From: Fibrobacterota bacterium
GTDB lineage: Bacteria; Fibrobacterota; Fibrobacteria; UBA11236
Direction of reading: 5' to 3'
Assembly (NCBI GenBank): GCA_043753995.1
Contig: JAYUVP010000113.1
Span: forward strand, 1-38,441
Length of the DNA stretch: 38,441 bases
Positions 251-17,972 of the stretch are shown here, piece after piece (the stretch's first letter is position 1; every line of letters starts with the position of its first letter). The notes under the pieces were generated by a model. The model was not told where the DNA came from, did no database searches, and saw only the letters and a list, made by a program, of their open reading frames with translations. A program made the position numbers and the translations under genes.

Positions 251-2023
251 TTAGAAAGCTCCGGGCATGCGGGGAGCCGCTGCCGTGGTGAAGAATAAAT
301 GCCGTTCCAGAAAATCGGCAGCGAAATAGAGCAAAGCGTTCAAGGCCGCGAGTTGGGCCATTCCCAAGCCAGCCGAGTTTGTCCAGGCCAGCCATCCGGT
401 CAAAGCCAAAGCGGCGACGCCTAGGACCGTGCGCAATACGGCTATGCCCAATTGCGGCCCCTGGAGCAATCGCGCCGAGTGCTTCATGAGCACGGCCACT
501 CGGTCTTCTGCCGCCGCCGGGTCACGGGAAACGCGCAAGTGACGTAACAGGGAGGCTTCTACCATCCATTTGGCGGCATGAGCGCAGCCAGCCACGAGGA
601 GAAGCGTGCCGATTCCTTGGCTATGGCCCATGGCGATGAGGACGGCTGCCGCCAAGGCGGGTCCGGTGGCTAAGCTGGTGAGGACAAATCGCAAGGCGGT
701 GGCGCCTCGATGCCACATGGCACGTGGCGTGTCGATATAAAGCATGGCGGAAGCGCCCACCGCAGCAAGGGCAACGATTCCTACGGCGATATCAAGCAGT
801 ATGGACGGAAATCCACCCAGCCAGGCGCTGAAAAAAGCGGGGCTTATGGATCGGGGTAGGGGAAGGCTTGCTGCCCAGGTATGCCAAGGCCCGCCATCAC
901 CAATCAAGCTGAGCGCAGCGGCCGTGGCGGAAACCCCAACGAAGGCCCCGAAGACGATGACTTCGCGGCTGAACCAAGACTTGCGCCAATTCATCCAGGC
1001 TTTCCACGCCAGGTGCGGGCGGCCCAAATGGGTGAGGCCTACCAGCAAGGCCATCTTCATGGTCAGGGCCGATAGCAAGGGTAAAAGCCAAGGAGAGGTA
1101 TCCATGCGGTGATCGAGGAAATATTTCCAAGCAAGACCCGCCCAGGCCAAGCCGAAGGCGACCTGGCTTATCACCAGCAAGGCAGCCAGGGGGCCATGCG
1201 CCGCCTCGGGCTTGAGCTTGCCGACATCGGCGGCGCGCAAGGTTTTGGGCAGAGGCTGCGAGGAAATAAAGCGCGTGGTGGGACGGCTATGCTTCGGGTC
1301 GGGCGCTCCCGGCAAGGAGAAGCCAGACGTCGGAGCCTCGGACTTAGGCGTCAAGGTAATGACGGTGACCTTGATGGCTTTAGTGGGGCAGGCTTGCACG
1401 CAAGCCGGTGCCTCGCCTACGCGCAGACGATCGACACAGAGATCGCATTTGCGTACGATGCCCTTGCCGTGATGAAATTTCGGCACGTCATAAGGGCATT
1501 TAAGAATGCAATACTCGCAGCCTATGCATTGATCGTCGAGATGTTTGACCACGCCCGTGTCGGGCTGTTTTTCATAGGCCAAAACCGGGCAACCTTCGGC
1601 GCAGAGGGGTTCTTGGCAATGATGGCAGGCCGTGGTGATATGCTGCGGGCCCTTCATGGCGGCGGGGTCGAGCAAGAGGCCGACATCTCGAAAGCTTTCG
1701 CCTTCGTCGTCATCGAGGCCATTCAAATTGTGACAAGCGGTGACGCAGGCCTTGCAGCCGCTGCAGCGATCGAGATTCACTTCGAAGGCATATTGCTCTC
1801 CCGGGCCGGGAGCGGCGAGAGGGAGCAATTCGCGATACCAATTCTCCAAGCTACCGGGCGTGGCTTCGGAATGCCAATTCGAAAATTTCTCGACGGCCGT
1901 CAAGGTGGCTTGGTCTTTCAGAGCCGAAGCGACGGCTTCGCCCAATAAGCCGGGGGCGAATTCGCGTAGGGAGGGAGGCGTGCTGGAAATCATGGCATCA
2001 GGCTCAATAAACGTCGCGTCCAT
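251..2023 (-). CDS. DmsB-type 4x[4Fe-4S] ferredoxin fused to DmsC/NrfD-like membrane anchor
   Basis: Four Cys clusters (CSGCKACVTAC, CHHCQEPLCAEGC, CIGCEYCILKC, KCDLC...PACVQAC), then a multi-TM domain with HLGRP and SWFSRE motifs typical of DmsC. Confidence 0.9.
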   Translation of the reverse strand: MDATFIEPDAMISSTPPSLREFAPGLLGEAVASALKDQATLTAVEKFSNWHSEATPGSLENWYRELLPLAAPGPGEQYAFEVNLDRCSGCKACVTACHNLNGLDDDEGESFRDVGLLLDPAAMKGPQHITTACHHCQEPLCAEGCPVLAYEKQPDTGVVKHLDDQCIGCEYCILKCPYDVPKFHHGKGIVRKCDLCVDRLRVGEAPACVQACPTKAIKVTVITLTPKSEAPTSGFSLPGAPDPKHSRPTTRFISSQPLPKTLRAADVGKLKPEAAHGPLAALLVISQVAFGLAWAGLAWKYFLDHRMDTSPWLLPLLSALTMKMALLVGLTHLGRPHLAWKAWMNWRKSWFSREVIVFGAFVGVSATAAALSLIGDGGPWHTWAASLPLPRSISPAFFSAWLGGFPSILLDIAVGIVALAAVGASAMLYIDTPRAMWHRGATALRFVLTSLATGPALAAAVLIAMGHSQGIGTLLLVAGCAHAAKWMVEASLLRHLRVSRDPAAAEDRVAVLMKHSARLLQGPQLGIAVLRTVLGVAALALTGWLAWTNSAGLGMAQLAALNALLYFAADFLERHLFFTTAAAPRMPGAF

Positions 2024-3899
2024 AGCGATGTTCTTTTTTCAGGCGCTCCACGTATTCCTTGGCTTGATCCGCTGTCTTTCCGCCAGCGATTTCGATCACT
2101 TTATGCAAAGCCGAGTCGACGTCCTTGGCCATGCGCTTAGCGTCGCCGCAGACATAGAAGCTTGCGCCGTCTTCGAGCCAGGCATACATTTCCTGAGCTT
2201 GCTCTAGCATGCGATCTTGCACATAAATCTTTTTTTCCTGATCGCGAGAAAAGGCCAGCGACAGCTTATTGAGAAAGCCGTCGGCCTCCATGTCGATGAA
2301 TTCCTCGGCATAGAGAAAATCAAAGGCGCGGCATTGATCGCCGAAGAAAAGCCAGTTACGGCCTTTGTCGCCCAAGGCGCGACGCTCTTGCAGAAAGGCG
2401 CGAAAAGGCGCGACGCCGGTACCAGGGCCCACCATGATGATGGGTTTTCCAGCATCATGCGGCAGGGTGAAATGCGATGTCGGCTGAACATAAACCGGCA
2501 CGGGCATGCCCAAAGGCACGCGCTCGGCGAGAAAAGTCGAGGTCACGCCGCGCCGTAGGCGACCATTCTGGCGCAAGCGCTGCACTCCGACGCATAAATG
2601 CACCTCGCCCGGATTTTCCAGGGGCGAAGAAGCGATGGAATAAAGGCGCGGTGCCAATTTGCTCAGCGATCCCACCACGTCTTGCAACGGAGGATGGCTA
2701 TGTGAAAAATCTTCCAGTACATCGAGGCAATCACGGGCCGCCAAATAATCCAAGGTGGCTTCACTTTGGGGCTCGACTACCAAGGCTTCGGCGCGCTTGC
2801 GTTCATTGGGATTGCGCGTGCCTGCGACGATGGCGCGCAATAAGGCTTCGCTTCCGCGCCGCAAGTCGAGCTTTTCCAAGAGGGCTTGGCGCAAGGTGGC
2901 GGACTCGCCGCCCACGGTAACCGCCTCGCTACCCAAGGCATTGAGCCTCAGGATAAAGCGATCGACGAGGTCATAGTCATTGCGCGGCATCACGCCCAGG
3001 GCATCGCCCACTTTATAAGACAGCCCGCTGCCCAGCAGGGAGAGGCTGAAATGGCGGGTGTCCTTGGCCGAACCCTTAGCATTCAGGGGATGGTTTTCGA
3101 GCAAGGCGGCGGGAAAGGGATGCTTGCGATCGTATTTGGGAGCCGTGCCTGCGGGGGCTGCGCTAGCCATTGGCTGGGAGCCATTGACTGCCGCGGAAGG
3201 CGTGGCCGCGCCCGTCGGCATTGCTTCGGAGATACCGGGATTTCCTTCACCGGCATGATTCTGCAATACCGTGGCCAGGTCGGTGAACCAAGTTTGTGCG
3301 GTGGCTTCAAAATCTGTATCACAGGCGACGACAGGCAAAAGCCGCTTGGCGCCGAGAGCGGCGAAGCGCTCGTCCAATTGCTTTCCCGCTTGGCAAAAGC
3401 GGCGATAACTGCGATCGCCCAAACCGAAGACGGCGAAATGCGTGGAGTCCAAACGAGGGGCTTGATCGCCTTTCAGGAAATCCCAAAAAGCCACGGCATG
3501 ATCGGGCATGTCGCCATCGCCCCAGGTCGAGCAAAGCAGGACAATGAATTTTTCGGCCGCAAAATCGAGATCCGCGTAGGCATCCATGCCCAGCACGCGT
3601 GGGGCCAAGGTGACCGGACCAGCGGCGCCTTTCAGCTTATCCGCAAATTGATGCGCCAAGCTTTCGGCATTGCCGCTTTGCGATCCGAAAAGCACCAGGA
3701 TTTGCGCCGTCGCTTTGGCGCTGGAGTTTGCCCTGGCGGTCGGCACGCCACCGGCATTGGGCATGCCCTGCGAGGGATTGCCGCCTTGCCAGCCATTTTG
3801 CAGCAAGGACACGTTTTGCATCCCGGCCAAAAAGCCATTCAGCCATGAGCGTTGTTCAACGGAAAATGGCGCATTATCAGGAATGATGGGGGAAATCAT
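2004..3899 (-). CDS. cysJ: CysJ-like diflavin (FMN/FAD/NADPH) reductase flavoprotein subunit
   Basis: Flavodoxin motifs FGSQSGNAE and STWGDGDMP; FNR motifs RLYSIASS, GPGTGVAPF, YVCGDAKRMA; C-terminal RDVY. Start placed at ATG 3899 (TTG 3914 possible). Confidence 0.9.
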   Translation of the reverse strand: MISPIIPDNAPFSVEQRSWLNGFLAGMQNVSLLQNGWQGGNPSQGMPNAGGVPTARANSSAKATAQILVLFGSQSGNAESLAHQFADKLKGAAGPVTLAPRVLGMDAYADLDFAAEKFIVLLCSTWGDGDMPDHAVAFWDFLKGDQAPRLDSTHFAVFGLGDRSYRRFCQAGKQLDERFAALGAKRLLPVVACDTDFEATAQTWFTDLATVLQNHAGEGNPGISEAMPTGAATPSAAVNGSQPMASAAPAGTAPKYDRKHPFPAALLENHPLNAKGSAKDTRHFSLSLLGSGLSYKVGDALGVMPRNDYDLVDRFILRLNALGSEAVTVGGESATLRQALLEKLDLRRGSEALLRAIVAGTRNPNERKRAEALVVEPQSEATLDYLAARDCLDVLEDFSHSHPPLQDVVGSLSKLAPRLYSIASSPLENPGEVHLCVGVQRLRQNGRLRRGVTSTFLAERVPLGMPVPVYVQPTSHFTLPHDAGKPIIMVGPGTGVAPFRAFLQERRALGDKGRNWLFFGDQCRAFDFLYAEEFIDMEADGFLNKLSLAFSRDQEKKIYVQDRMLEQAQEMYAWLEDGASFYVCGDAKRMAKDVDSALHKVIEIAGGKTADQAKEYVERLKKEHRYGRDVY

Positions 3900-3910
3900 G
3901 GTCTGGCTCT

Positions 3911-5830
3911 TCAAACTTCGGCCAAGGCCGCGGAGGTGGATTTGGCCAGGGCTTCGGCAGCCACGGGACTCAAGGCGGCAATCAAGGATTCATCGGAATG
4001 TCGAGCCGTGAAGTCCGTGAAGGTCTCGCCCGGACGGCGCGAGGAGACATAGGTGGCCAAAACCGCATGTAACACCTGGGTTACGGCGCTTTCCGGCACC
4101 GACTCGATGAGGGGTACGGCGATGCGGCCTTGATCCTGATATCCTCCGCCCACGAAGAAATGAAATCCGCCTTGCACACCTTTGGGGGTTTCGACCTTGG
4201 TGGCGATAAGCCCCAAGTCCCCGATGAAATGCTGGGCGCAGCTATGCCCGCAGCCTGTGACGTGAATGTTGACGGCGGCATCCTCCGGCAAGCTACCGGC
4301 GAGTTTGGCGGCGATGACGCGGGCCGTGCCCTTGGTGGCAGCTTGTCCGAATTTGCAGCCCTCGGCGCCCGTGCAGGCAACCAGACCTGCCACGATGGGA
4401 TCGGGAGCATGGCTGAGACCGAGCTTTTGCAAGCCTTCGAATACAGCGTCAAGCTTGGCCTCGGGCACATGGGGCAAGATCAGGTTTTGCCAAACCGTGA
4501 GACGCCATTCGCGCTGTCCGCAGGCGTCGGCGAGATCGGCAAGTCCATGTAATTGGGCTGAAGTCAGTCGTGCGGCGGGGACGGCGGCACCCACCCAGAA
4601 TAGGCCCTCTTGCTTTTGGGAATGAAAGCCAAGATGGGTTTTGCGACCTGAGGCGGGGGCGAAGGCGCAGCGATCCTTGGGGTAACGGCGCAGGGACCGG
4701 CCCAGTTCTTTTTCGGTGGCCGCCAAAAAGGCATCAAAGCCTTCGATGTCGAGCACATACTTGAGGCGGGCTTTTTTGCGATTGCCGCGGTCGCCCTTGG
4801 CAATATAGACCCGCACCATGGCCAAGGCCACATCGACGGTTTCGGCGGGCGTCAATAGCAAACCCGTGTCGCGGGCGAAATCCTTATGCCCCGAGATGCC
4901 GCCGAGGGCGCAGCGGAAGTAAATGCCTGCCGGCAAATCGCCATCGGCTTCAACGCGTACCGCGCGAAAGCCGATGTCATTCGTGTCTTCTAAGGCGGCG
5001 ATGCTGCCGCCGCCATCGAAGGCGATATTGAATTTGCGCGGCAGGCCATAACATTCGCGATTGTGCAAAATGGCATGATGGAGTTTTTTGCAAAGCGGTA
5101 AAACGTCGAAGAGTTCGTCCTTGTCGATGCCCGCGGTGGGATTACCGGTGACATTGCGGATATTGTCGGCGCCCGAACCGCGCGGAATGATGCCGCATTG
5201 ATGCAAATCAGTGAGCAAGGCCTCCATGAATTCAGGCTTGATCTCGCGAATCTGCAAATTGGCGCGGGTAGTGATATCGGCATGGCCGACCGCATAGCGC
5301 TCGGCGCAATCGGCGACCACTCGCATTTGCTGCGAAGACAGGACTCCGCAAGGAATGCGCATGCGGCACATCAAGCCGGCTTGCGCGGGCATCACATTAA
5401 AGAGCCCGTGGAATTTAAAGCGGAAAATGTCGGCGCCTTCGGGAGCTTGACCCAAGGCCGAAAGCTTGGCTATGGTATCCCAAGCCTCCAGGGGATTGCC
5501 TTCGAATTTGATTTGCTCTTCTTTAGATAGGCGTTTGCCTGCGGCGAGCCAGGCTTGCTGGGCGCGGTAGCCTATCGCCTCTTTACCGCCATAAGACGCG
5601 ACCGTGCCAGAACCGGGTTCCGGCGCAGCGCTTTTGCCGGGCTGGGAAGGCGAGGCACTGGCTGAAGTCGCAGGGCCTGCTCCGACCATGGCGCGCAGAA
5701 AACCATCGAGGTATTCCTTTTGCGTGTCGGAGAAGGCACCGGTGGCGCCATTATTGGGGTTGGAAAATGTGGGGTTTGCCGCAATAGCGGAAACCGTAGG
5801 CAATACAGGAGACGTCAACGTCTGGGCCAT
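3911..5830 (-). CDS. nirA: NirA-family siroheme/4Fe-4S nitrite reductase
   Basis: TTRANLQIR, GADNIRN and LPRKFNIA motifs; siroheme/Fe-S ligands CTGAEGC and GCGHSC; nitrate cluster context. Confidence 0.9.
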   Translation of the reverse strand: MAQTLTSPVLPTVSAIAANPTFSNPNNGATGAFSDTQKEYLDGFLRAMVGAGPATSASASPSQPGKSAAPEPGSGTVASYGGKEAIGYRAQQAWLAAGKRLSKEEQIKFEGNPLEAWDTIAKLSALGQAPEGADIFRFKFHGLFNVMPAQAGLMCRMRIPCGVLSSQQMRVVADCAERYAVGHADITTRANLQIREIKPEFMEALLTDLHQCGIIPRGSGADNIRNVTGNPTAGIDKDELFDVLPLCKKLHHAILHNRECYGLPRKFNIAFDGGGSIAALEDTNDIGFRAVRVEADGDLPAGIYFRCALGGISGHKDFARDTGLLLTPAETVDVALAMVRVYIAKGDRGNRKKARLKYVLDIEGFDAFLAATEKELGRSLRRYPKDRCAFAPASGRKTHLGFHSQKQEGLFWVGAAVPAARLTSAQLHGLADLADACGQREWRLTVWQNLILPHVPEAKLDAVFEGLQKLGLSHAPDPIVAGLVACTGAEGCKFGQAATKGTARVIAAKLAGSLPEDAAVNIHVTGCGHSCAQHFIGDLGLIATKVETPKGVQGGFHFFVGGGYQDQGRIAVPLIESVPESAVTQVLHAVLATYVSSRRPGETFTDFTARHSDESLIAALSPVAAEALAKSTSAALAEV

Positions 5831-5860
5831 GGCAACACCTTGGAAAGGCTAGGTGGAGTC

Positions 5861-5919
5861 CAAAGGCCCGGGCGGACCGGGAACCAGTTGGTGGCGCGAA
5901 TAAGCTTTCGGAAAAGCCT
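5861..5919 (-). promoter_or_regulatory. Conserved leader element, nirA copy (candidate cis-regulatory RNA)
   Basis: Minus strand AGGCTTT-TCCG-AAAGCTT hairpin, then CCACCA-ACTGG-TTC-CCGGT-CCGCCCGGGCCTTTGG; matches the nrtA and narK leaders. Confidence 0.55.
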
Positions 5920-5945
5920 AGACACGCAAGCCGAAATATTTCTAA

Positions 5946-5961
5946 TGCAATCCACGTACCA
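5946..5961 (-). promoter_or_regulatory. sigma54 (-24/-12) promoter of the nirA operon
   Basis: Minus strand TGGTACG-TGGA-TTGCA vs consensus TGGCACG-N4-TTGCW; GG-N10-GC spacing exact. Confidence 0.85.
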
Positions 5962-6056
5962 AGAATTTTTTTAGGAGCTCGGAGCATCAAAACGCAAATT
6001 GGGCGAAATTTCGCAGGCTTTGACTTCTTTCGAACAAAACAATCGAGGGTGATTTT

Positions 6057-6097
6057 TGACAATGGCAGTCTTTGTCATATGATGGGTGTGAGTGTCA
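6057..6097. promoter_or_regulatory. Putative upstream activator sites (TGACA/TGTCA half-sites)
   Basis: TGACA 6057, TGTCA 6073, TGTCA 6093; about 95-135 bp upstream of the nirA sigma54 promoter. Confidence 0.4.
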
Positions 6098-6210
6098 ATT
6101 GTTGCGGCTTTGATACGTGGCGGGCTTTTCCCACGATTCGATTGATGAGCTATTCATCCATGTGGTTAAATCAGAGTCAGGGCGCGGGCTTTGCGGTCCC
6201 ACTATAAAGA

Positions 6211-7323
6211 ATGGCTTTGAATGAACTTTTGCAAATCGGCTTTATTCCCCTGGCCGATTGCGCACCCCTGGTGGTGGCTCATGAATTAGGGTTGTTCGAA
6301 GCGCATGGCCTCAAGGTCGAGCTCCGCAAAGCCAATGGCTGGGACCAATTGGTGGCTCGCCTTGCGGCGGGTGAGGTCGATGCCGCGCATATGCTTATCA
6401 CTCTGGTCTTGGCGCACAATGTTGCGCCCGGCGGGTGGCAAGAGCCTTTTGCTTATGCAACATGTCTCTGTCAGCATGGCAATGGCATCACCTTAAGCAA
6501 TGCCCTGTGGCGCGCGGGAGTGCGCGATGCTTTGGGTATTGCCACCTACCTTGAGCAGAATCCCGAAAAAGTTTTACGGCTCGGCGTTGTCCATCCCCGC
6601 AGCACCCATGAGTATTTATTTCGCAATTGGTTATTGCGTGGCGGCTTGACGCCAGGCAAGCGGATTGAGTTTGTGCATGTGCCGCCACCCGAAATGGTGC
6701 GCCGCTTACGCACGGCGGAAATCGATGGATATTGCGTGGGCGAGCCTTGGAATCAAAGGGCCGTCACCTCCAAGCTTGGGTATTTAGTGGCGCTTAGCAC
6801 CGACCTTTTGCCGCCCATGAATGAAAAGGTTTTGGCCGTCCGCAAAAATTGGCACGAAAGTCATGCTGAAAGCCATGCCAACCTCCTACGCTGCATTTTG
6901 GAGGCGGCGGTTTGGTTAGGCGATCCCGAACATCGCGAACAGGCTGTGGATTGGATTGCTTCGAAGCGCTATGTGAATAGCACCAAGGAGCCCATCAAAG
7001 CCGCCTTGTCAGGGGAGTTATTGGCGGGAGGCGGACGGATTCTGCATTCCAAAGGCTTTTTGAGGTTTTCCGGTGAGGGAGCCAATTACCCCGATGCGAA
7101 TCATGCGCGTTACTATGCTCAGCGCATGTGGGAAGAGGGTCATTTCAGCTCGGATGATTTGCAAAGACTCGACATGGAAAATATTTGCCTCGATACCTTT
7201 TTCGCCAAGTCAGTCGAGAGCTTGCCCAGAATCGATGGACAGGCTTGGGTGCCTCCACAATCCCAACTCGGCTATGCTGAATTCTTGGATGAATTTCCAA
7301 ATGGGTCTAAGTCAAAAGGATGA
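6211..7323 (+). CDS. nasS: NasS-like cytoplasmic nitrate/nitrite sensor (CmpA/NrtA fold, no signal peptide)
   Basis: GFIPLADCAPL, DAAHML, PPPEMV and GYCVGEPWN motifs; starts directly at the binding domain with no export signal; divergent from nirA. Confidence 0.75.
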   Translation: MALNELLQIGFIPLADCAPLVVAHELGLFEAHGLKVELRKANGWDQLVARLAAGEVDAAHMLITLVLAHNVAPGGWQEPFAYATCLCQHGNGITLSNALWRAGVRDALGIATYLEQNPEKVLRLGVVHPRSTHEYLFRNWLLRGGLTPGKRIEFVHVPPPEMVRRLRTAEIDGYCVGEPWNQRAVTSKLGYLVALSTDLLPPMNEKVLAVRKNWHESHAESHANLLRCILEAAVWLGDPEHREQAVDWIASKRYVNSTKEPIKAALSGELLAGGGRILHSKGFLRFSGEGANYPDANHARYYAQRMWEEGHFSSDDLQRLDMENICLDTFFAKSVESLPRIDGQAWVPPQSQLGYAEFLDEFPNGSKSKG

Positions 7324-7363
7324 CGCTCATGGCATATAGGGTCCCGCTTTGAAGCCATTTGGT

Positions 7364-7426
7364 TGACAGAGGATTTGTCAATGCATGTCATGCCATTGCT
7401 CATACAAAAAATGACATGTTATGACG
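7364..7426. promoter_or_regulatory. Putative upstream activator sites (TGACA repeats)
   Basis: TGACA 7364, TGTCA 7376 and 7386, TGACA 7412, TGACG 7422; two pairs with 10-bp period. Confidence 0.45.
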
Positions 7427-7507
7427 TAGCACCCTTGATACCTCTTAGATGTGGCGAAAAACGCGTCACTTTGCTGGCTAGTCAAAAAAAAGTCTAGACA
7501 GTTTCAT

Positions 7508-7523
7508 TGGTACGTTGATTGCT
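7508..7523 (+). promoter_or_regulatory. sigma54 promoter of narK operon
   Basis: TGGTACG-TTGA-TTGCT; GG-N10-GC exact. Confidence 0.85.
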
Positions 7524-7536
7524 CCTTTAATAATTT

Positions 7537-7573
7537 GGTCCTCCAGCCATTGCAATGTTTCCGGTCCGTCCGG
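7537..7573 (+). promoter_or_regulatory. Conserved leader element, narK copy
   Basis: GG-T-CCTCCA-GCC...CCGGTCCGTCCGG; 13-mer identical to the nrtA copy. Confidence 0.5.
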
Positions 7574-7706
7574 TTCTCTGGCCACGCGAGATCGAAGCAG
7601 GCGAGTCTAGCCGACTCGCGCGCTCGGCAGCGTAGTCACCTGATCCGGATATTTTGATCCTTGGTTCGGAGCTAGCCGTGCGTTTCCACCTTTTTGGGGA
7701 TACGCC

Positions 7707-8921
7707 ATGCAAATCAAAGATTTTATGAAAGCCGGCCACCCGCCTACGCTTTTTTCCGCCTTTCTCTACTTCGACATGAGCTTCATGGTCTGGGTGCTGC
7801 TCGGGCCTCTCGGCATTTTCATTGCCAAGGACTTGGGCCTGTCGCCTGCGCAAAAAGGATTCATGGTGGCCTTACCGGTTTTATCCGGCGCCTTTTTCCG
7901 TTTCTTTCTTGGTTTGTTGGTGGATCGAATCGGAGCTAAGCGCGCTGGCCTGCTGGCGCAAGTCATAGTCATTGCCGCGCTGGCTTGGGCCTATTTAGCC
8001 CATGTCGACACCTTGTCGCAAATTTGGGTCTTGGGCATTTTCCTCGGCGTCGCCGGAGCCTCTTTCGCTGTCGCCTTGCCCCTGGCTTCGCGTTGGTATC
8101 CCCCTGAAGCCCAAGGTTTGGCCATGGGCATTGCAGGCGCGGGTAATTCCGGTACGGTTTTCAGCGCATTGTTTGGGCCAGTACTCGCCCAGCACTTCGG
8201 TTGGAATGCCGTTTTCGGAATCGTTCTTATTCCCCTGGTACTGACCTTAGGCCTTTATACCATCATGGCCAAGGACAGCCCCGATGTGCCGCCCCCGAAA
8301 AAGCTTCATCAATATTTGACCGTCTTGCGCGACGCGGATACTTGGTGGTTCATGTTTTTCTATTGCGTCACATTTGGTGGTTTTGTCGGACTTTCCTCCA
8401 GCCTAGTGATTTATTTCAATTCGCAATTTGGCGTGAAGCCGGCCGTCGCGGGTTATTTGACGGCGGCCTGCGTATTCGCGGGTTCCTTATTCCGCCCTAT
8501 CGGCGGTAAAGTGGCAGATCAAATCGGCGGTATACGCTCCCTGCAATTCATGTATGGCTGCGTCGCCACCGCCATGTTGGGCATTGTGGTGTTCTCGACC
8601 CAGCTTATCCCTTCCTTGCTTTTCTTTATTTTCGGCATGATGGCTTTGGGCATGGGCAATGGCGCGGTTTTCCAATTGATTCCTCAGCGCTTTCGCAAGG
8701 AAATCGGCGTGCTCACCGGCCTGGTTGGCATGGCGGGCGGTATCGGTGGCTTTTATCTCGCCACTTCCATTGGCTTGTCTAAGCAATATACCGGTGACTA
8801 TCGAGCGGGCTTTCTCATCTTCGGCCTTTTGGGTCTGCTGGCCTTGGCTGGACTCTTGGGCGTTAAGCGCCGTTGGCGTAGCACCTGGGGATCGCCCTTG
8901 GTGACGACGGCGAAGATCTAA
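7707..8921 (+). CDS. narK: NarK/NasA-family MFS nitrate/nitrite transporter
   Basis: About 12 TM segments; nitrate signatures GLAMGIAGAGNSG and GMGNGAVFQL...GMAGGIGGF; conserved Arg in FFRF and FRPIGG. Confidence 0.93.
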   Translation: MQIKDFMKAGHPPTLFSAFLYFDMSFMVWVLLGPLGIFIAKDLGLSPAQKGFMVALPVLSGAFFRFFLGLLVDRIGAKRAGLLAQVIVIAALAWAYLAHVDTLSQIWVLGIFLGVAGASFAVALPLASRWYPPEAQGLAMGIAGAGNSGTVFSALFGPVLAQHFGWNAVFGIVLIPLVLTLGLYTIMAKDSPDVPPPKKLHQYLTVLRDADTWWFMFFYCVTFGGFVGLSSSLVIYFNSQFGVKPAVAGYLTAACVFAGSLFRPIGGKVADQIGGIRSLQFMYGCVATAMLGIVVFSTQLIPSLLFFIFGMMALGMGNGAVFQLIPQRFRKEIGVLTGLVGMAGGIGGFYLATSIGLSKQYTGDYRAGFLIFGLLGLLALAGLLGVKRRWRSTWGSPLVTTAKI

Positions 8922-10639
8922 TGCTTTCGGTCTCAATGGGGCAGGTCACCCTCACGGGTCGGCGTGGTCCCAATGAGGATTTTCTTGGCGGGGTGACCCC
9001 CGAAGGCGAGGTTTTGCGCGATAAAGGCGTGGCCCTCGCGGTCGCGGACGGCGTGGGTAAAGGCCGCGGCGGGCGTAACGCCGCCGAGACGTCCGTCCGG
9101 CGTTTCCTCTCCGATTATTATAGCAGTCCCGACACCTGGGGCGTTCGCAAAAGCCTGGAACAAACCCTCATTGCCCTGAATCGCTGGGTGCGCGAAGGCG
9201 CAGTCAAGGATGGCAAGGCGGGTGAGGCTACTTTCGCTTGTTTGGTGGTCAAGGGTCGGCGTGCCACGGTAGCTCATGTCGGCGATGCTCGCGTCTATTT
9301 ATTAAGGCAGGGCGAATTGCGCCGCCTCACCCAAGATCATGTTTGGGACAATCCCGATTTTCGCAATGTGGTTTCGCGTGCAATGGGCTTGGACGAGCAC
9401 ATTCATCCAGAATTCCATCAGGAAAATGTCATGCCCGGCGACGTTTTCCTGCTTTGCACCGATGGTTTTTACAAAGCCCTGGAGCCCACCGCCGCCAGCG
9501 TGCAAGCCGAGCTACGCCAGGATATTCAGGCCACCGCCGATGCTTTAGCCCAAGCTGCCGCCGCGCGCGCGGGCAGCGACGACGATATTTCCCTTTTGAT
9601 GCTGCGCCTAGATAAGCTGCCCGCTGAAGACGCTTTGCAGAAAAGTGCGGGAACCGACGACTTGCCCTTGCATCCCGATATTCGCGAAGGCATGACTCTC
9701 GATGATTTTTATCTCGCGCGGCGCTTGCATCGCGGTCAGCTTTCCGAAGTTTTCCTTGCCGATGATCTCAAGCGCGGGCGCAAGGTGGTTTTGAAATTTC
9801 CCCGTATCGAGGCCGCTTCCCCCGAAGACTCGCGTCGGCAAATCGATCGCTTCTTGCGGGAAGAGTGGGTGGGGCGACGCATTCAGCATCGCCACGTCAT
9901 GCCTGCCTTGATCTTGGAGGCTGGACGCCGCAGCCACTTGTATTATGCCACGCCCTGGCATCCCGGCGAAACCTTGCGCCGAAGGCTCGATGCGGGCCAA
10001 CCCCTGCCCGCCGCCGAAGCCGTAGAGCTCACCGTGCAAATCGCCCGTGGTCTAGAGGCCTTGCACCGCTTGCAGGTTCTGCACCGCGACATCAAGCCGG
10101 ACAATATTCTTATAGATGAAGAGGGTAAGGCCTTGCTTCTCGATTTAGGCGTGGCCCATACCGACGCCTTTGCCGGCGAAGGCGGAGGGGAAAGCGATGT
10201 GCCGGGCACGCCAAGTTATATGGCGCCCGAATTTTTTCGCGGCAAGCAAACCATGGCCGATGAACGCACCGAGGTCTATGCCCTGGGCGTGACACTCTAT
10301 GAATTGTTAACTCGCAAATTGCCCTATGGTGAAATCGAGCCCTTCAGCCAGCCGCGCTTTCAGCGCTGGACCCCGCCTTCACGCTACAATCCCCAAATAC
10401 CTCTTTGGTTGGAAACCGTGGTGCAAAAAGCCACCGAGGCCGATCCTGCGCGGCGCTTTCAAGCCCTCAGTGAATTGCGTTTTCATTTGGAACGCCGGGA
10501 ACGCGTAGCCCAGGAAGATGCGCCACGCACCATCGCCGAATCAAATCAGGGCAATGTCTTACCCTGGAAATTCGCTGCCGTTCTTTTCGCCGTCCTTGCC
10601 ATTCTTGAATTTTTGCTTTTGCTGCGCTCGCGACATTAA
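8921..10639 (+). CDS. Bifunctional PP2C-type phosphatase / Hanks-type Ser/Thr kinase with C-terminal TM helix
   Basis: PP2C motifs VADG, HVGDAR, LCTDG, DDIS; kinase motifs VVLKFP, HRDIKPDN, LDLG, GTPSYMAPE; hydrophobic C-terminus; TAATG overlap with narK stop. Confidence 0.92.
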   Translation: MLSVSMGQVTLTGRRGPNEDFLGGVTPEGEVLRDKGVALAVADGVGKGRGGRNAAETSVRRFLSDYYSSPDTWGVRKSLEQTLIALNRWVREGAVKDGKAGEATFACLVVKGRRATVAHVGDARVYLLRQGELRRLTQDHVWDNPDFRNVVSRAMGLDEHIHPEFHQENVMPGDVFLLCTDGFYKALEPTAASVQAELRQDIQATADALAQAAAARAGSDDDISLLMLRLDKLPAEDALQKSAGTDDLPLHPDIREGMTLDDFYLARRLHRGQLSEVFLADDLKRGRKVVLKFPRIEAASPEDSRRQIDRFLREEWVGRRIQHRHVMPALILEAGRRSHLYYATPWHPGETLRRRLDAGQPLPAAEAVELTVQIARGLEALHRLQVLHRDIKPDNILIDEEGKALLLDLGVAHTDAFAGEGGGESDVPGTPSYMAPEFFRGKQTMADERTEVYALGVTLYELLTRKLPYGEIEPFSQPRFQRWTPPSRYNPQIPLWLETVVQKATEADPARRFQALSELRFHLERRERVAQEDAPRTIAESNQGNVLPWKFAAVLFAVLAILEFLLLLRSRH

Positions 10640-10643
10640 TTCG

Positions 10644-10700
10644 TAACAAAGGCTGACAAAGCCGATTCGTCAACTCGCCATTTCCTGACAACACATGACT
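10644..10700. promoter_or_regulatory. Putative upstream activator sites (TGACA repeats)
   Basis: TAACA 10644 / TGACA 10654 and TGACA 10686 / TGACT 10696 (10-bp period), plus CGTCA 10668. Confidence 0.4.
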
Positions 10701-10804
10701 TCTCGACTCAAGGCCCTTGGGGCTTTTGAGTCGATGTCTAGGGCTCACGGCCTGTATCGGCCCGAATCGTTCAAAATCAGCACTTGCATGTGACGTCACT
10801 TTAT

Positions 10805-10820
10805 TGGTACGGGGGTTGCG
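10805..10820 (+). promoter_or_regulatory. sigma54 promoter of nrt operon
   Basis: TGGTACG-GGGG-TTGCG; GG-N10-GC exact. Confidence 0.8.
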
Positions 10821-10840
10821 TATACAAGTTACAGGCCGGA

Positions 10841-10891
10841 CTTTGTTCGCAAAGCCTGGCCGCCAACTGACTCCGGTCCGTCCGGGCTTTT
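10841..10891 (+). promoter_or_regulatory. Conserved leader element, nrtA copy (candidate cis-regulatory RNA)
   Basis: CTTTG-TTCG-CAAAG hairpin, then CCGCCA-ACTG-ACTC-CGGT-CCGTCCGGGCTTTT. Confidence 0.55.
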
Positions 10892-11224
10892 GGAACGTGG
10901 AACTTCGCCCCTATAGGCGCAGGCCACGCTCGAAGCCCACATTGCCAGGAATCAGATATGGCCACCAACGATTTTATCGTGGAGGTTACCGTTACCGATG
11001 TGTTACGTCGGCAACAGCGGCCTCCCCGGCCGAGCGGAGCCCGCCCTCAGGACCAGCAGAGGACCCGCCGGGCTTCGACAGGCGTACCGCCCGTGACTCC
11101 CGGAGCAGTGCGCCTTGCCCCGCCGGAGGCGTGTCTTCAGCGCCTCCCGCGGGGTCCCCTCCCTCGCCGCAGTTTTTTATCCGTTGCCATCAGCGCCAAC
11201 CTTCTCTCCATCAAGGACAAAATC

Positions 11225-12535
11225 ATGCAAGCCGCAAACCCTTTTGCGACCGCCAAGGCCGTTCGCCTTTCTTTCCGAACCCGCGTTTTCGCCGCCGCTG
11301 GCGCGGCGCTCTTCGCGCTCATGCCTGCCTGGGGACAAGGCAAGCCTGAGACCACCAAGGCCAAGCTGGGCTTTATCGCCCTCACCGATTTCGCCCCTTT
11401 GGCGATTGCCAAAGAAAAAGGCTTTTTCACCAAGCATGGTATGCCGGATGTCGAGGTTTCCAAACAAGCCAGCTGGGGAGCCACCCGCGACAATCTGGAA
11501 TTGGGTTCAGAGCATGGCGGCATCGATGGTGCGCATATTCTGACGCCCATGCCTTATGCTATGACTTTGGGCCTCAATACCAAGGGCAATAAGTCGGTGC
11601 CCATGTATATCCTCGCCCGCCTCAATTACAATAACCAAGCCATTTCGGTGGCCGAGAAATACAAGGAAAAGGGTTTGAAGCTGGACGCTTCCGTCATCAA
11701 GCCGATGGTGGACAAAGCGAAAGCCAAGGGCGCACCACTCACCTTCGCCATGACCTTTCCCACCGGCACGCACAATTATTGGATACGCTATTGGCTGGCC
11801 GCTGGCGGCATTGATCCCGATCTTGATGTCAATACCATAGTGATACCTCCGCCGCAAATGGTTGCCAATATGCGCGTCGGTAATATGGATGCGTTCTGTG
11901 TCGGCGAACCCTGGAACCAACAGCTCATCAATCAGAAAATCGGGTATAGTGCCATTCAGACCCAAGAGATTTGGAAGGACCATCCAGAGAAAGCCTTGGG
12001 CATGCGCAAAGAATGGTGCGACAAGAATCCTATAGCCACCAAGGCAATACTCAAGGCCATCATGGAAGCGCAAATGTGGTGTGACAAGGACGAGAACAAG
12101 GTTGAGCTTTCCAAAATCCTATCCCAAAAAAATTGGATCAATTGCCAAATCTCAGATTTGGAGCCTCGCCTCAAAGGCGAAACCAACTATGGCGATGGTC
12201 GTCCCAAGAAAACCGGTGAGCTGATGAAATTCTGGCGCGACAATGCCTCCTTCCCTTACAAAAGCCATGACATCTGGTTCCTGGCTGAAACCCGGCGCTG
12301 GGGCTTTCTGCCCAAGGGTGTCGAATACGATAAGGTCGTGAACTCAGTGAATCGCTCGGATCTCTGGCGCGAATGCGCCAAGGAATTGGGCGTGCCTGAA
12401 GCTCAAATACCTGCCACTGATTCTCGCGGCAAAGAAACCTTCTTTGACGGCGTTGTCTTCGACCCCGAAAATCCTGAAGCCTACCTTGCCTCGCTCAAGA
12501 TCAAAAATCTCGACGGTAGCAAGAAAAAGAAATGA
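11225..12535 (+). CDS. nrtA: Nitrate ABC transporter periplasmic binding protein
   Basis: Signal peptide ending AWG; LGFIALTD, IDGAHIL, FPTGTH, PPPQMVANM, FCVGEPWN, HPEK motifs; AAGGA RBS before ATG 11225. The frame is open back to ATG 10958. Confidence 0.92.
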   Translation: MQAANPFATAKAVRLSFRTRVFAAAGAALFALMPAWGQGKPETTKAKLGFIALTDFAPLAIAKEKGFFTKHGMPDVEVSKQASWGATRDNLELGSEHGGIDGAHILTPMPYAMTLGLNTKGNKSVPMYILARLNYNNQAISVAEKYKEKGLKLDASVIKPMVDKAKAKGAPLTFAMTFPTGTHNYWIRYWLAAGGIDPDLDVNTIVIPPPQMVANMRVGNMDAFCVGEPWNQQLINQKIGYSAIQTQEIWKDHPEKALGMRKEWCDKNPIATKAILKAIMEAQMWCDKDENKVELSKILSQKNWINCQISDLEPRLKGETNYGDGRPKKTGELMKFWRDNASFPYKSHDIWFLAETRRWGFLPKGVEYDKVVNSVNRSDLWRECAKELGVPEAQIPATDSRGKETFFDGVVFDPENPEAYLASLKIKNLDGSKKKK

Positions 12536-13513: not shown

Positions 13514-14356
13514 ATGAATAAGGAATCATCCATGTTACCCAAGGAAAAGGATCCTCAGGATCGCCGCTTCGTGCACCTGGGCGGAATACACCAGATTTTC
13601 GGCTCCGGCGCTTCGCGTTATCATGCCTTGGACAATGTCGATCTCGACGTGGCCCGCGGCGAATTCGTGAGCATTATCGGCCATAGCGGTTGTGGCAAAT
13701 CGACCTTGCTCAATATCGTCGCAGGACTGGCTTCCCCCACCCAGGGTGCGGTCATGGTGGCTGGCAAGCAAGTCACCGCTCCCGGACTGGATCGCGCCGT
13801 GGTTTTTCAGTCGCATAGCCTATTGCCCTGGCTCAGCGTCCTGGAAAACGTGCGCATGGCCATCGACAGCGTGCATCCCAGCTGGAACAAGGCGCAGCGC
13901 ACTGAAGCCGCCATGAAATATGTCGACATGGTGCATCTCACCGCCCATGCCAAGAAGAAGCCGAGTGAAATCTCGGGAGGTATGAAACAGCGCGTCGGCA
14001 TCGCCCGTGCTTTCGCCGCCAATCCCGACGTGCTTTTGCTTGACGAGCCCTTCGGCGCTCTCGACGCTTTGACACGCGGTAGTATGCAGGACGAGTTGAC
14101 CTCAATTTGGGAGCGTGATCGCAAAACCGTGCTCATGATCACCCATGATGTCGATGAGGCCATTTTCCTTTCCGACCGCATCGTACTCATGAGCAATGGC
14201 CCCAGGGCCAAAATCGCGGAAAACGTGATCATCGATATTCCCCGGCCGCGCACTCGCGAAACCCTGATTGATGATCCCCGCTATAGCGAAATCCGCAAGC
14301 GGCTGGTGCATTATCTCATCAGCACCGGACATGCCCTACATAAGGCGGCGGCATGA
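13514..14356 (+). CDS. nrtD: Nitrate ABC transporter ATP-binding subunit (NrtC/NrtD)
   Basis: Walker [10 protein letters not shown], signature ISGGMKQR, Walker [20 protein letters not shown]. Confidence 0.92.
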
Positions 14357-14495
14357 AAAAATTCCGTCGGCCCCTAGAGGCCTGATTTCTCAAACTCTCA
14401 CACTTAGCAGGCGCATTTCCAAATGCGCCAGGAATCAAACCATGTCTTTAACCCACACCGTCGCCGCCAACCCGGCAATTTCTCAGGAGGCCATT

Positions 14496-15845
14496 ATGCT
14501 CAACTCATCGTCCCCCGTCCGACTACGCCGTAAGAGCGTGTTGGCTGCAACCGCCCTCGCCTTTTCCGCCGGAGCGGTTTGGGCCATGCCACCGGGCGAA
14601 TCGCCCTTTTCCATGCCCCAGCCTCCCTTCTTTGGCCAAGTGCGCCTTCGCACCGAATACGATGTCAAGAGCATGCTCGACACCACGGTAAAGAAAGGCC
14701 TGTTAAATACCCAGATTCGTACTCGTCTGGGCTTCTTGGCGGCTCCTTCGGAAAAAGTCGAAATCAAGGTCGAACTTCAGGACACTCGTTTCTACGGCAG
14801 TGAAGTTCCGGCTGGCAATCCCGCCACAGCTTCGGTCGCCAATTCTAAAGGTGTCGATCTCTTGCAGGGCTATGTGGCTATCCAAGAAGGTCCAGTCAAG
14901 CTCGCCCTTGGCCGCCAGAAAATGTCGCTCGGCGCGGGCCGCTTCCTCTCGACCCTCGAATGGAGTCCCACCAGCCGAGCCTTTGACGGCGCAGCCTTCA
15001 ATTGGACGGTCACCCCGACTTCCGACCTCACCGGTTTGTTTTACCTCGTGCGCGACACTCTCACCGCAGCAGCCTCAGCCAATACCACAACCATTATCGG
15101 TGACCGCCTGCTCCTCACCGGCCTGCATTACAATCACAAGGTGAGTGATGCCTTTACCGGCGAAGCTTATGCCTTTTACGATCAAAGTCGCCTGCGCGCC
15201 GTTTATGGCGTCGACTCCGCCGATAATTATGACCTAGTCTACCTAGGTGCCCGTGTTTTCGGTAAGGCCGGTCTTTTCACCTATGATGAAGAGTTCATTT
15301 ATCAAGCCGGTGAAATGCGCAAAGGCGCCAAGGATTTGACCAGCGCCGCTTGGCAGCTCGGAGCACGCTTGGGCATGGCCTTCCCCAGTGACATCAAGTT
15401 CAATGTTGGTCTAGACATCATGACCGGCGATACCACCAAAGCCGACGGTGACAATAACCTTTACCGTGCCAATTATTATTTCGCGCATCACCTTTATGGC
15501 TGGATGGACTATTTCGGAGTCAACCCCCAATACGGTGTCATGGATTATCGTGCCGATGCTGACTTTGGATTCTTTGGCGAACCCGGCTCGCGAAAAGCAA
15601 CCCTCAAGCTTGCCTACCATTACTTCACCCCTCAAAATGCGCCTAAGGCCGCCGACGTCGCCTATGGTCAGGAATACAATGCCGAAGTGCATCTCTCGCT
15701 CTATCCCAAGAGCAATATCGTACTCGGAGCCGCCGCCTTCCTTCCCGGCGAAGGTGCCTACAGTGTGCCCCTGGCTCGCTTACCCAAGGGCCGCAACAAT
15801 GAACCCGGACTCTTCCTCTATTTCATGCCCGTCTTCAATTTCTAA
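14496..15845 (+). CDS. Alginate-export (AlgE-like) family outer-membrane beta-barrel, candidate anion porin
   Basis: AGGAGG RBS; signal peptide; GQVRLRTE, LGRQ and RAFDG motifs; amphipathic strands; C-terminal Phe (FNF). Confidence 0.8.
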   Translation: MLNSSSPVRLRRKSVLAATALAFSAGAVWAMPPGESPFSMPQPPFFGQVRLRTEYDVKSMLDTTVKKGLLNTQIRTRLGFLAAPSEKVEIKVELQDTRFYGSEVPAGNPATASVANSKGVDLLQGYVAIQEGPVKLALGRQKMSLGAGRFLSTLEWSPTSRAFDGAAFNWTVTPTSDLTGLFYLVRDTLTAAASANTTTIIGDRLLLTGLHYNHKVSDAFTGEAYAFYDQSRLRAVYGVDSADNYDLVYLGARVFGKAGLFTYDEEFIYQAGEMRKGAKDLTSAAWQLGARLGMAFPSDIKFNVGLDIMTGDTTKADGDNNLYRANYYFAHHLYGWMDYFGVNPQYGVMDYRADADFGFFGEPGSRKATLKLAYHYFTPQNAPKAADVAYGQEYNAEVHLSLYPKSNIVLGAAAFLPGEGAYSVPLARLPKGRNNEPGLFLYFMPVFNF

Positions 15846-15866
15846 TTCTCCTCTCCTAAATTTTTC

Positions 15867-15900
15867 GGCGCCGGGCGGTAAATCCGTCGGCGCCTTTTTT
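15867..15900 (+). terminator. Rho-independent terminator of nrt operon
   Basis: GGCGCCGGGCGG-TAAAT-CCGTCGGCGCC stem-loop followed by TTTTTT. Confidence 0.85.
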
Positions 15901-16004
15901 ATGCCCCCTTTGTCGGTCTGACAAAAATCCCTGCAGCTGGTATTTCAATAATTTTGAAATAATTTGGCAATATTTGTTGCATCACCCCTCCGTGGAGGTC
16001 ATGC

Positions 16005-17336: not shown

Positions 17337-17456
17337 AAGCTTCGCATTACCGTTTCTGTTGGGGTCGTCAAGCGCCTCTGGGGCGACGGCGGCCCACCCC
17401 TGTCTGCCCCTTGCCTCGCATGAAGGACTCGTCTGCTTTTGTTATTTAGATCGCAC

Positions 17457-17972
17457 ATGATTAAAAAATACCTGCATTCAATGTTAGACAAGGAAGCGGT
17501 CAAGTTAGGAGAGCCTGTCGATTGGGCTAAATATGTTGTGGACGCGACGCCGGTGACTTTTCTGAAATATGTAATGGCAATTCCACTATTGGCCCTATGG
17601 AAGCATTCCTCTGCAAAGGCCCTATCTGTAGCCCGCTTGATCGCCGTACAAAGTGAAGACTGTGGTAGCTGTGTTCAAATAGAAATAAACGCGGCCAAAA
17701 AGAGAAAGGTTGACCTAGACGTTATTCGAAACACGCTTCGAAAGAATTATGAGGTTCTTGAAGAACCATGCAAAGACGTCGCGCTTTTTACAGAAGCCGT
17801 TATAAGTCGATCTGGGAATGAGATGGAATTGGGTGAAATCCTCAAAAGAAAAATTGGAGAAAAGGCATTTGTGGAAATTGCTGTTGCTATTTCAACCGCA
17901 AGATTTTATCCAACGGTGAAACGAGCATTGGGCTTTTCCACTGAATGTAAAATTGAAAGTCTGAAAATATAG
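17457..17972 (+). CDS. AhpD/carboxymuconolactone-decarboxylase-like protein
   Basis: EDCGSC (CxxC) motif, helical composition, RFYPTVKRALG; markedly AT-rich; alternative TTG start 17439. Confidence 0.65.
   Translation: MIKKYLHSMLDKEAVKLGEPVDWAKYVVDATPVTFLKYVMAIPLLALWKHSSAKALSVARLIAVQSEDCGSCVQIEINAAKKRKVDLDVIRNTLRKNYEVLEEPCKDVALFTEAVISRSGNEMELGEILKRKIGEKAFVEIAVAISTARFYPTVKRALGFSTECKIESLKI

Follow-up and report, generated by a model that had tools for sequence, protein, structure and literature searches.

Pathway-specific induction of bacterial nitrate assimilation has so far been explained by ANTAR antiterminators or by DNA-binding regulators. The closest described systems are NasR, acting on the nasF leader of Klebsiella, and NasS-NasT of Paracoccus, Pseudomonas, and Azotobacter. 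In these systems, a structured 5′ leader follows a nitrogen-regulated promoter, often of the sigma-54 type. Nitrate- or nitrite-specific induction is added on top, and an active conformer of the leader competes with an inhibitory one. The RNA targets of ANTAR proteins are described in one account as two stem-loops, with A1 and G4 in the loops and the second stem-loop overlapping a terminator (PMC3369936). NasS-NasT clusters are described as encoding a cytoplasmic nitrate-binding protein with the NrtA fold (PMC3795266); a protein of this kind is also encoded here. The subject of this work is a short RNA element in the leaders of the nitrate-assimilation transcripts of a Fibrobacterota bacterium (class Fibrobacteria, UBA11236; GenBank assembly GCA_043753995.1). 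It lies in a stretch of 38,441 nucleotides, the whole of which is called the window (contig JAYUVP010000113.1, positions 1 to 38,441, forward strand). An earlier note, made from the letters of this DNA alone, had suggested a new cis-regulatory RNA of nitrate assimilation, either riboswitch-like or bound by a protein. We consider it very probable that the sites form a functional, strand-specific, cis-acting RNA element dedicated to nitrate/nitrite assimilation.

The window holds three exact copies of the 13-mer CCGGTCCGYCCGG, at 5868-5880 (minus strand), 7561-7573 (plus), and 10873-10885 (plus). Only 0.15 copies were expected, and three or more were reached in 0 of 100 shuffles. The same three are the only copies in the whole assembly (both strands, 5,211,478 bases in 356 contigs), and all are sense-oriented in the leaders of nitrate genes. 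The 11-mer core has one extra genomic match, on contig C81, in apparent coding sequence. The genes that follow the element are a NIR_SIR nitrite reductase (nirA, 3911-5830, minus strand), a NarK-type major facilitator superfamily (MFS) transporter (narK, 7707-8921), and an NrtA-type binding protein (nrtA), which is followed by a permease and an ATPase. Upstream of each 13-mer, on the coding strand, is a TGGTAC-N5-TTGC match of the sigma-54 type, and the -24 GG and -12 GC at canonical spacing are found before the nirA, narK, and nrtA operons. The pattern TGGYAY-N5-TTGC occurs four times in the window against 0.42 expected, a count reached by 0 of 100 shuffles. From the -12 element to the 13-mer there are 67 (nirA), 39 (narK), and 54 nt (nrtA), close to the 66, 38, and 53 nt of the earlier note, whose observation is confirmed. 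The fourth match to the sigma-54 pattern, TGGCAT-N5-TTGC at 18901-18915 (plus), lies inside a cysteinyl-tRNA ligase reading frame of the opposite strand and is probably due to chance.

Including relatives, 57 distinct copies of the element were tabulated. Many of these are orthologues and are not independent, and one row (L154) comes from an unpublished genome (G021), with nothing resting on that row alone. The consensus over the 57 copies is N-CCAA-YYG-N(3-4)-CCGGUCCGYCCGG-N-C-Y-U-UUGG, with a core of about 31-35 nt. The conserved form is an irregular hairpin made of a 4-bp outer helix (P1), two pyrimidine mismatches and a G-C pair, a bulge of 3-4 nt, and an inner hairpin (P3, CCGG-UCCGY-CCGG). 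What had been noted earlier as a ‘CCNCCA’ box turns out to be one strand of P1, the 5′ one (CCAA or CCAG), in a helix formed with UUGG or CUGG after the 13-mer that had gone unseen. The pairs of P1 are CCAA/UUGG in 51 of the 57 copies, GCAA/UUGC in 5, and CCAG/CUGG in 1, the narK copy of this genome; mismatched combinations do not occur. A further (sixth) GCAA/UUGC copy was found in genome G039, and one low-GC metagenome copy has a possible UCAA/UUGA P1. Differing P1 variants stand side by side within single genomes (G004, G018, G025, and this genome), which favors base pairing over the recognition of fixed half-sites.

One pair of P1 covaries (six GCAA/UUGC and one CCAG/CUGG) and the fifth pair of P3 varies; the remaining pairs are invariant. 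The covariation score of P1+P3 in alignment A2 was 0.094 compared to 0.050 in shuffles, and it was reached by 0 of 500. For P1+P2 the score was 0.156 compared to 0.129, and it was reached by 10 of 500. Three pairs of P3 (CCGG/CCGG, loop UCCGY) do not vary, while the fifth is C-G in 8 rows, U-A in 7, U-G in 7, A-U in 2, G-C in 1, and something else in 15. Loop variants are UCUGY, UCCGG, and ACCGU. An alternative stem, P2 (AYYG with CGGU), is mutually exclusive with P3 and corresponds to the short stem of the earlier note (ACUG/CGGU and variants). When 43 copies are aligned, this stem is compatible with pairing in 98.8% of cells, the only changes being between C and U opposite G. It is part of the minimum-energy fold in some leaders (12 of 39), but the key helix is P1.

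The element tolerates insertions. In 15 long copies (nrtA leaders in genera g3 and g4), its halves are parted by a structured insert of 68-135 nt. Exactly one CCAACYGA octamer is kept in all 15, 68-135 nt before the 13-mer and 21-42 nt after the sigma-54 -12 box. In the consensus fold of nine long nrtA leaders, the insert consists of closed stems seated at the bulge. The 13-mer hairpin also occurs free-standing, without P1, at L031:1933 (minus), L033:5505 (plus), L034:5058 (plus), L035:8030 (plus), and L042:1882 (minus). These five hairpins have five different complementary stem extensions, and such differences lend support to P3 as a physical hairpin. Four of them lie between cistrons of nitrate clusters (nrtA-nrtB or nrtC-porin) and lack a U-tract; the genes next to the one in L042 have no Pfam family.

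The long g3 nrtA leaders have one more feature. In L005, L007, L031, L033, L043, L142, L145, L148, and L149, a hairpin of the insert has the loop ACGGAC, complementary to the GUCCGY loop of the element (the variants are ACGCAC in L149 and ACGGAA in L031). Several of these leaders also have a second GUCCGU box near the predicted 5′ end. The loops might contact each other there, or a competing pairing might form. The ACGGAC/GUCCGY kissing loop was kept as an observation only: the Y position does not covary, and the contact would consume two stem bases of P3.

In the window, the copies were scored with two models, R1 (29 positions, from the three window copies and 26 copies of relatives) and R2 (37 positions, including P1). 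The nirA copy (5860-5891, minus strand; 42.6 bits with R1 and 51.1 bits with R2) follows a promoter match TGGTAC-GTGGA-TTGC at 5947-5961 (minus). Its P1 pairs CCAA 5888-5891 with UUGG 5860-5863, its P3 hairpin is the 13-mer at 5868-5880, and its P2 would pair ACUGG 5884-5888 with CCGGU 5876-5880. The nrtA copy (10863-10893, plus; 40.8 bits with R1 and 49.4 bits with R2) follows TGGTAC-GGGGG-TTGC at 10805-10819 (plus). Here, P1 pairs CCAA 10863-10866 with UUGG 10890-10893 around the 13-mer at 10873-10885, and ACUG 10866-10869 with CGGU 10874-10877 would form P2. The narK copy (7543-7581, plus; 34 bits with R1) is a diverged form behind TGGTAC-GTTGA-TTGC at 7508-7522 (plus). It has the compensatory P1 variant, CCAG 7543-7546 with CUGG 7578-7581, and a 14-nt linker with a small palindrome before the 13-mer at 7561-7573. 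Because of this insertion, the narK copy was missed by R2.

Hairpins with UNCG loops had been reported upstream of the nirA and nrtA copies, and both are present in the predicted folds, with a UCCG tetraloop at 5894-5927 (minus) and a UUCG tetraloop at 10834-10861 (plus). The sequence of the nirA stem-loop is not conserved in relatives, where the 30 nt upstream of the element vary between copies. It had also been suggested that the AAAG arm could pair with a downstream CUUU instead, giving an alternative fold (AAAGCCUGG/CCGGGCUUU). This is a 9-bp duplex of the nrtA leader of this genome only and is not conserved. An upstream partner at or below -9 kcal/mol was found in only 19 of the 57 copies.

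Model R1 was run on 151 genomes of the class. The matches listed include 54 that score at least 28 bits, and every one of these lies in family f1, in 26 of its 32 genomes. One of the 54 (G014) lacks P1 and a promoter and looks like a coding-sequence false positive. Weaker but complete variants were found outside f1, in family f2 (G034) and family f4 (G061 and G039). All of them follow a sigma-54-like box and have GCAA/UUGC as the outer helix; the variant in G034 precedes a NirB-like protein and a multihaem cytochrome. Model R2 was run on 151 genomes sampled over the phylum and matched in 8 of 11 f1 genomes as well as this genome, in 1 of 2 f2 genomes, and in the single f4 genome. One doubtful match of 26.7 bits was seen in family f5 (1 of 56), and no match was found in 80 sampled genomes of 14 other families. 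By these model scores, strong matches are limited to one family (f1), with variants in two neighboring families, among the genomes searched.

The identified genes downstream of the element all act in the uptake or reduction of nitrate or nitrite (nirA, narK-type MFS transporters, and nrtA), and this restriction in the relatives supports the proposal of a cis-regulatory RNA for nitrate assimilation. Further downstream genes encode a formate/nitrite transporter (L011 and L038), a Fer4_11+DmsC protein near molybdenum-cofactor genes (L173), and Alginate_exp porins (L038). Of the short copies, 40 of 41 have a sigma-54-type box upstream, as do all 15 long ones. All tabulated copies are on the coding strand, including those of the divergent nirA/narK pair. 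Of the nitrate/nitrite transporter and reductase transcripts examined in f1, all carry the element except narK in one genus. A pattern scan of metagenomes returned at least 122 loci, of which five look real among the matches listed (L233, L234, L263, L264, and L269); the rest are coding-sequence background from a pattern that was too loose. Exact 13-mers in f4 and in GC-rich genomes were set aside as mostly background: a reversed-pattern control was similarly frequent, and those inspected lay in apparent coding sequence without P1 or a promoter. One locus outside any nitrate cluster (L006, G009:C10:191330-191394) consists of tandem units of about 39 nt, each with one 13-mer, and scored only 19.9 bits with R1.

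Comparison of positions 5000-12000 with the 4227 models of Rfam 15 (cmscan, E up to 10) gave only mir-633 and snoR113, both at chance level and neither on the element. Rfam includes a ‘narK motif’; no Rfam model matched the element regardless. Literature searches on nitrate-assimilation leader RNA and riboswitch candidates turned up no description of the motif. An Rfam hit, copies spread over the genome, and a lack of covariation had been named in the earlier note as signs against its proposal. Rfam gave no match at E up to 10, the genome holds no further copies of the 13-mer, and compensatory changes are present in the P1 helix. The element is a previously undescribed RNA family of a known general kind.

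The end of the element is 25-65 nt from the start codon in most copies, with gene starts set by a simple rule, the first ATG of the open frame. In unconstrained minimum-energy folds of 39 short-type leaders, P1 was formed in 2, P3 in 2, and P2 in 12. At least five bases of the 3′ half of the element were paired with the region from -25 to +15 of the start codon in 29 of these 39 leaders. Imposing P1+P3 on them carried a mean penalty of 5.7 kcal/mol. The predicted fold of the nirA leader contains P2 and a putative OFF-state helix (5824-5869, minus), in which GGGCC 5865-5869 and UGG 5860-5862 pair with GGCCC 5824-5828 and CCA 5830-5832, masking the A and G of the start codon (AUG, 5828-5830). 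Within this helix, the predicted fold also has the CACCU/AGGUG hairpin (5836-5855) that had been described over the ribosome-binding site, here the Shine-Dalgarno sequence. The nirA leaders of genus g4 have the same predicted architecture, with GGCCUUUGG against CCAAUGGCC. In nrtA and narK leaders of genera g2 and g3, UUGGACAUAC pairs with GUAUGCCCAA beside the AUG, and this pairing is also seen in the consensus fold of the nine long nrtA leaders.

In this genome, nrtA and narK have longer leaders. The whole 413-nt nrtA leader is more stable than its shuffles (z = -4.4). It contains a terminator-like hairpin with a T-run (11149-11177, plus) between the element and the probable nrtA start, about 255 nt downstream of the element; the scan reported none there in the nirA and narK leaders of the window. 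The nrtA open reading frame (ORF) from 10958 is probably over-extended, with ATG 11226 as the probable true start: the NMT1_2 domain starts at residue 128 of this ORF, and ATG 11226 appears to open a signal-like peptide. A long leader with a terminator-like hairpin before the probable start makes attenuation possible at nrtA. The nrtA frame is open for about 90 codons before ATG 11226, an Arg/Pro-rich stretch that houses the terminator-like hairpin, and nrtA in relatives (L033, L032, and L175) has comparable in-frame extensions of 90-170 codons.

Regulators of the known type were then looked for in the genome, which is 97% complete. The ANTAR family search (PF03861) gave 0 hits, a weak negative as the positive control failed and no control genome gave a signal. 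Since the controls of the official family search were weak, we built our own ANTAR profile from 11 Pfam-confirmed NasT proteins of proteobacterial loci and searched 74,587 six-frame ORFs. The best E value was 0.99, and a full-length NasT profile matched receiver domains only. The NIT domain had no match in the genome, with a weak control (below the cut-off, one control genome).

A regulator-like gene is present in every cluster that carries the element. It encodes a stand-alone cytoplasmic protein of the NrtA fold (NasS-like; 6211-7323, plus; Pfam NMT1_2, 1.1e-68) and is preceded by a sigma-70-like promoter, TTGACA-16-TATGAT (6056-6083, plus; 11 of 12 positions), identified by consensus match. 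Among solved structures, its nearest relative is the regulatory domain at the C-terminus of cyanobacterial NrtC (PDB 8wm7_C, 2.9e-53, residues 6-302), while the comparison with periplasmic NrtA (2g29) gave 8.5e-33. This domain of NrtC is described as binding nitrate and docking PII onto the transporter (PMC10945777). The ATP-binding cassette (ABC) ATPase of the cluster (13514-14356, plus; 280 aa) has no C-terminal regulatory domain. From the sequences, the NasS-like protein and the short ATPase look like a split form of NrtC, and the NasS-like protein may therefore be simply a detached transporter regulator. Its neighbors are nirA and narK, with no nasT-like gene; in the 11 proteobacterial loci, nasT lies directly upstream of the sensor. 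Orthologues (44-59% identity) are present in 22 of the 31 other f1 genomes, and all 22 have strong element matches, a co-occurrence that is trivial because both lie in one cluster. The element was found in 0 of 80 distant loci of NasS-like homologues (30-43% identity; Verrucomicrobiota, cyanobacteria, and Proteobacteria). The closest stand-alone homologues outside the lineage (L054:3949-4854 and L058:1155-2060, Chthoniobacter-type Verrucomicrobiota, 36-39% identity) are divergent beside a LysR-type regulator and not beside nasT. The isoelectric point, 6.2-9.2 for NasS-like proteins compared to 5.2-6.0 for 10 of 11 NasT-partnered NasS, was considered as an argument for RNA binding and dropped as too weak.

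Probably, then, the leader element switches the translation of nitrate/nitrite transcripts on. In the RNA by itself, P2 would arise from pairing of the first CCGG(U) with the AYYG behind P1. This would leave the 3′ half (CCGG-GCYUUUGG plus a few bases beyond it) free to pair with the Shine-Dalgarno and start-codon region and to keep translation off. A trans-acting factor would bind the P3 hairpin, stabilize P1+P3, and free the start region, so that translation is turned on; in the long nrtA leader, it may additionally prevent termination. In this scheme, nitrogen limitation would be read at the sigma-54 promoters, and a further cue specific to the pathway, probably nitrate or nitrite, would enter at the leader. 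The factor would most likely be a non-ANTAR RNA-binding protein, possibly controlled by, or identical with, the cytoplasmic nitrate-binding protein of the cluster. The data show the motif itself, its specificity, the covariation of P1, the tolerance of insertions, the regulon, and the lack of a detectable ANTAR domain. From these we infer the two-state model, which is well motivated, as well as its direction, its signal, and the protein nature of the effector. The full reading, an ON switch of translation with P1+P3 stabilized by a non-ANTAR protein effector, is tentative and has somewhat less than an even chance of being right.

Several points weigh against this full reading. No candidate for an RNA-binding protein emerged, and the searches for ANTAR and NIT had the weak controls described above. 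The product of the sole regulator-like gene that the clusters share has the fold of a solute-binding protein and lacks any domain for binding nucleic acids; being closer to the NrtC domain than to NasS, it may be unconnected to the RNA. The outer pair of P3 is C-G in 27 of 40 distinct rows and broken in 13 (CCGA, CCGC, and ACGG variants). Covariation is never seen in P2 or in three of the P3 pairs, and the copies are related, so that their counts overstate independence. Contacts between the 3′ half and the initiation region exceed chance only modestly: at least 10 pairs were formed in 22 of 39 leaders, compared to 8-18 of 39 in 20 shuffled replicates, and the mean number of pairs was 8.9, compared to 6.4 with the 3′ segment shuffled. 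In these folds, the start-region pairing is enriched but not proven, and covariation is unable to test it since both of its strands are nearly invariant.

Another possible explanation is a true riboswitch, in which the fold of P1, internal loop, and P3 binds a small molecule (nitrate, nitrite, or an inducer such as 2-oxoglutarate), stabilizing P1 and freeing the start codon. A riboswitch would agree with the covarying switch helix P1, which is not in the minimum-energy state, with the invariant loop and junction bases, and with a junction that takes insertions of 68-135 nt. It would also suit the differing contexts after the element (25-65 nt to the start, or a terminator-like site in the long nrtA leader). 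ANTAR and NIT, the known nitrate-responsive RNA-binding types, were undetected, and no Rfam family matches. However, the core is very small (about 31-35 nt), the distribution is narrow, and RNA does not easily bind small anions. The P3 stem keeps its bases unchanged instead of covarying, which is more usual for protein recognition, and a pocket built with P1 leaves the free-standing intercistronic hairpins unexplained. We regard a riboswitch as doubtful, and direct sensing of nitrate or nitrite by the element, replacing the protein antiterminators NasR/NasT in this lineage, as unlikely. A protein effector is somewhat likelier than a small molecule because the 13-mer hairpin occurs as a stand-alone module, its stem bases are invariant, and small bulged hairpins are typical protein sites.

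The free-standing strong hairpins between nrtA and nrtB or between nrtC and a porin, without a U-tract, are placed like intercistronic stabilizers. They could point to a constitutive structural module without signal-dependent switching, such as a stabilizing or processing hairpin of the pathway mRNAs. This seems improbable: the 13-mer is invariant in the three window copies and in all 29 relatives of alignment A1, with few changes in later variants, which exceeds what a stabilizer needs. The distal P1 strand is kept across insertions of up to 135 nt, and the element belongs to one regulon only, always near the 5′ end and the start codon. A 13-mer that is invariant over a regulon and capable of being single-stranded also resembles a seed-pairing target, here for a small RNA that would act in trans, by base pairing, on all mRNAs of nitrate assimilation. 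Nevertheless, no reverse complement of the 13-mer or of its 11-nt core is found elsewhere in the genome, the one other 11-mer match (C81) is apparently coding, and P1 covariation and the conserved hairpin form would be left unexplained, so we give this explanation very little credence. Least probable, to the point of being barely credible, is a DNA operator, an inverted repeat CCGG-N5-CCGG inside CCAA...TTGG for a transcription factor acting on sigma-54 promoters. In its favor are the palindromic sequence and the position in the window, 39-67 bp past the -12 box, but all tabulated copies are on the coding strand, even those of the divergent nirA/narK pair. In addition, the half-sites covary as base pairs with different variants in one genome, the halves can be 68-135 bp apart, and some copies are intercistronic, far from any promoter. 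A generic intergenic repeat, like a repetitive extragenic palindrome, was rejected since there are only three copies in 5.2 Mb, all sense and all in nitrate-gene leaders. The DNA operator, the generic repeat, and the small RNA target are each contradicted by the data.

Several neighboring genes deserve mention. nirA is followed by genes for a CysJ-like flavodoxin/FAD/NAD protein and a fused 4Fe-4S/DmsC-like membrane protein (251-5830 in all, minus), an unusual electron supply for an assimilatory nitrite reductase; in G012, a Fer4+DmsC gene is preceded by an element of its own (L173:10566). After nrtABC there are two outer-membrane porins of the Alginate_exp family (14268-17336, plus). A porin in G012 carries its own element (L038:7735), which suggests dedicated nitrate or nitrite channels. 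The porins are followed by a gene (17439-17972, plus) whose 177-aa product has a CGSC motif and belongs to no Pfam family. A gene for a fused PP2C phosphatase and Ser/Thr kinase (8921-10639, plus) overlaps the narK stop and is also found at L035:4717-6405 and L172:2653-4389. It is kept after narK in genera g1, g2, and g4 and is absent from the g3 clusters.

In this lineage, ANTAR and NIT went undetected, yet the nitrate/nitrite transcripts carry a small RNA module. The module is short and sharply defined and has natural compensatory and insertion variants, so that the question of nitrate sensing is directly testable in vitro. Either outcome would be new, a family of RNA-binding regulators or a class of riboswitches, and direct sensing of nitrate or nitrite, if true, would make this the first RNA receptor for a nitrogen oxyanion. 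The element also yields a covariance model, and it can serve as a marker of the regulon when nitrate assimilation genes, porins and electron-transfer subunits among them, are annotated in these uncultured bacteria of sediments.

Compared to the ANTAR targets, there is one invariant hairpin here, with a UCCGY pentaloop that has no A at position 1, set inside P1. The element is usually 25-65 nt from the start codon, with no overlapping terminator-like site reported in the window, and the predicted output is translation initiation. In contrast to NasS-NasT, ANTAR is undetected in the genome, and the sensor-like gene is present but has no nasT beside it. Translational ON riboswitches with a P1 switch helix likewise have a short aptamer-like fold in which the 3′ strand of P1 is shared with a helix masking the ribosome-binding region. 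They also show variable insertions at the junction and differing sequence contexts after the element. The small classes preQ1-I and guanidine-II are comparable in size only. The element differs from such riboswitches in its invariant stem bases, in an inner hairpin that also occurs alone, and in having no Rfam match. The C-terminal domain of cyanobacterial NrtC (PDB 8wm7) is, like the NasS-like protein, cytoplasmic and of the NrtA fold. In the account of that system, the domain forms one protein with the ABC ATPase and controls the transporter together with PII (PMC10945777), whereas here it is encoded by a separate gene with its own sigma-70-like promoter.

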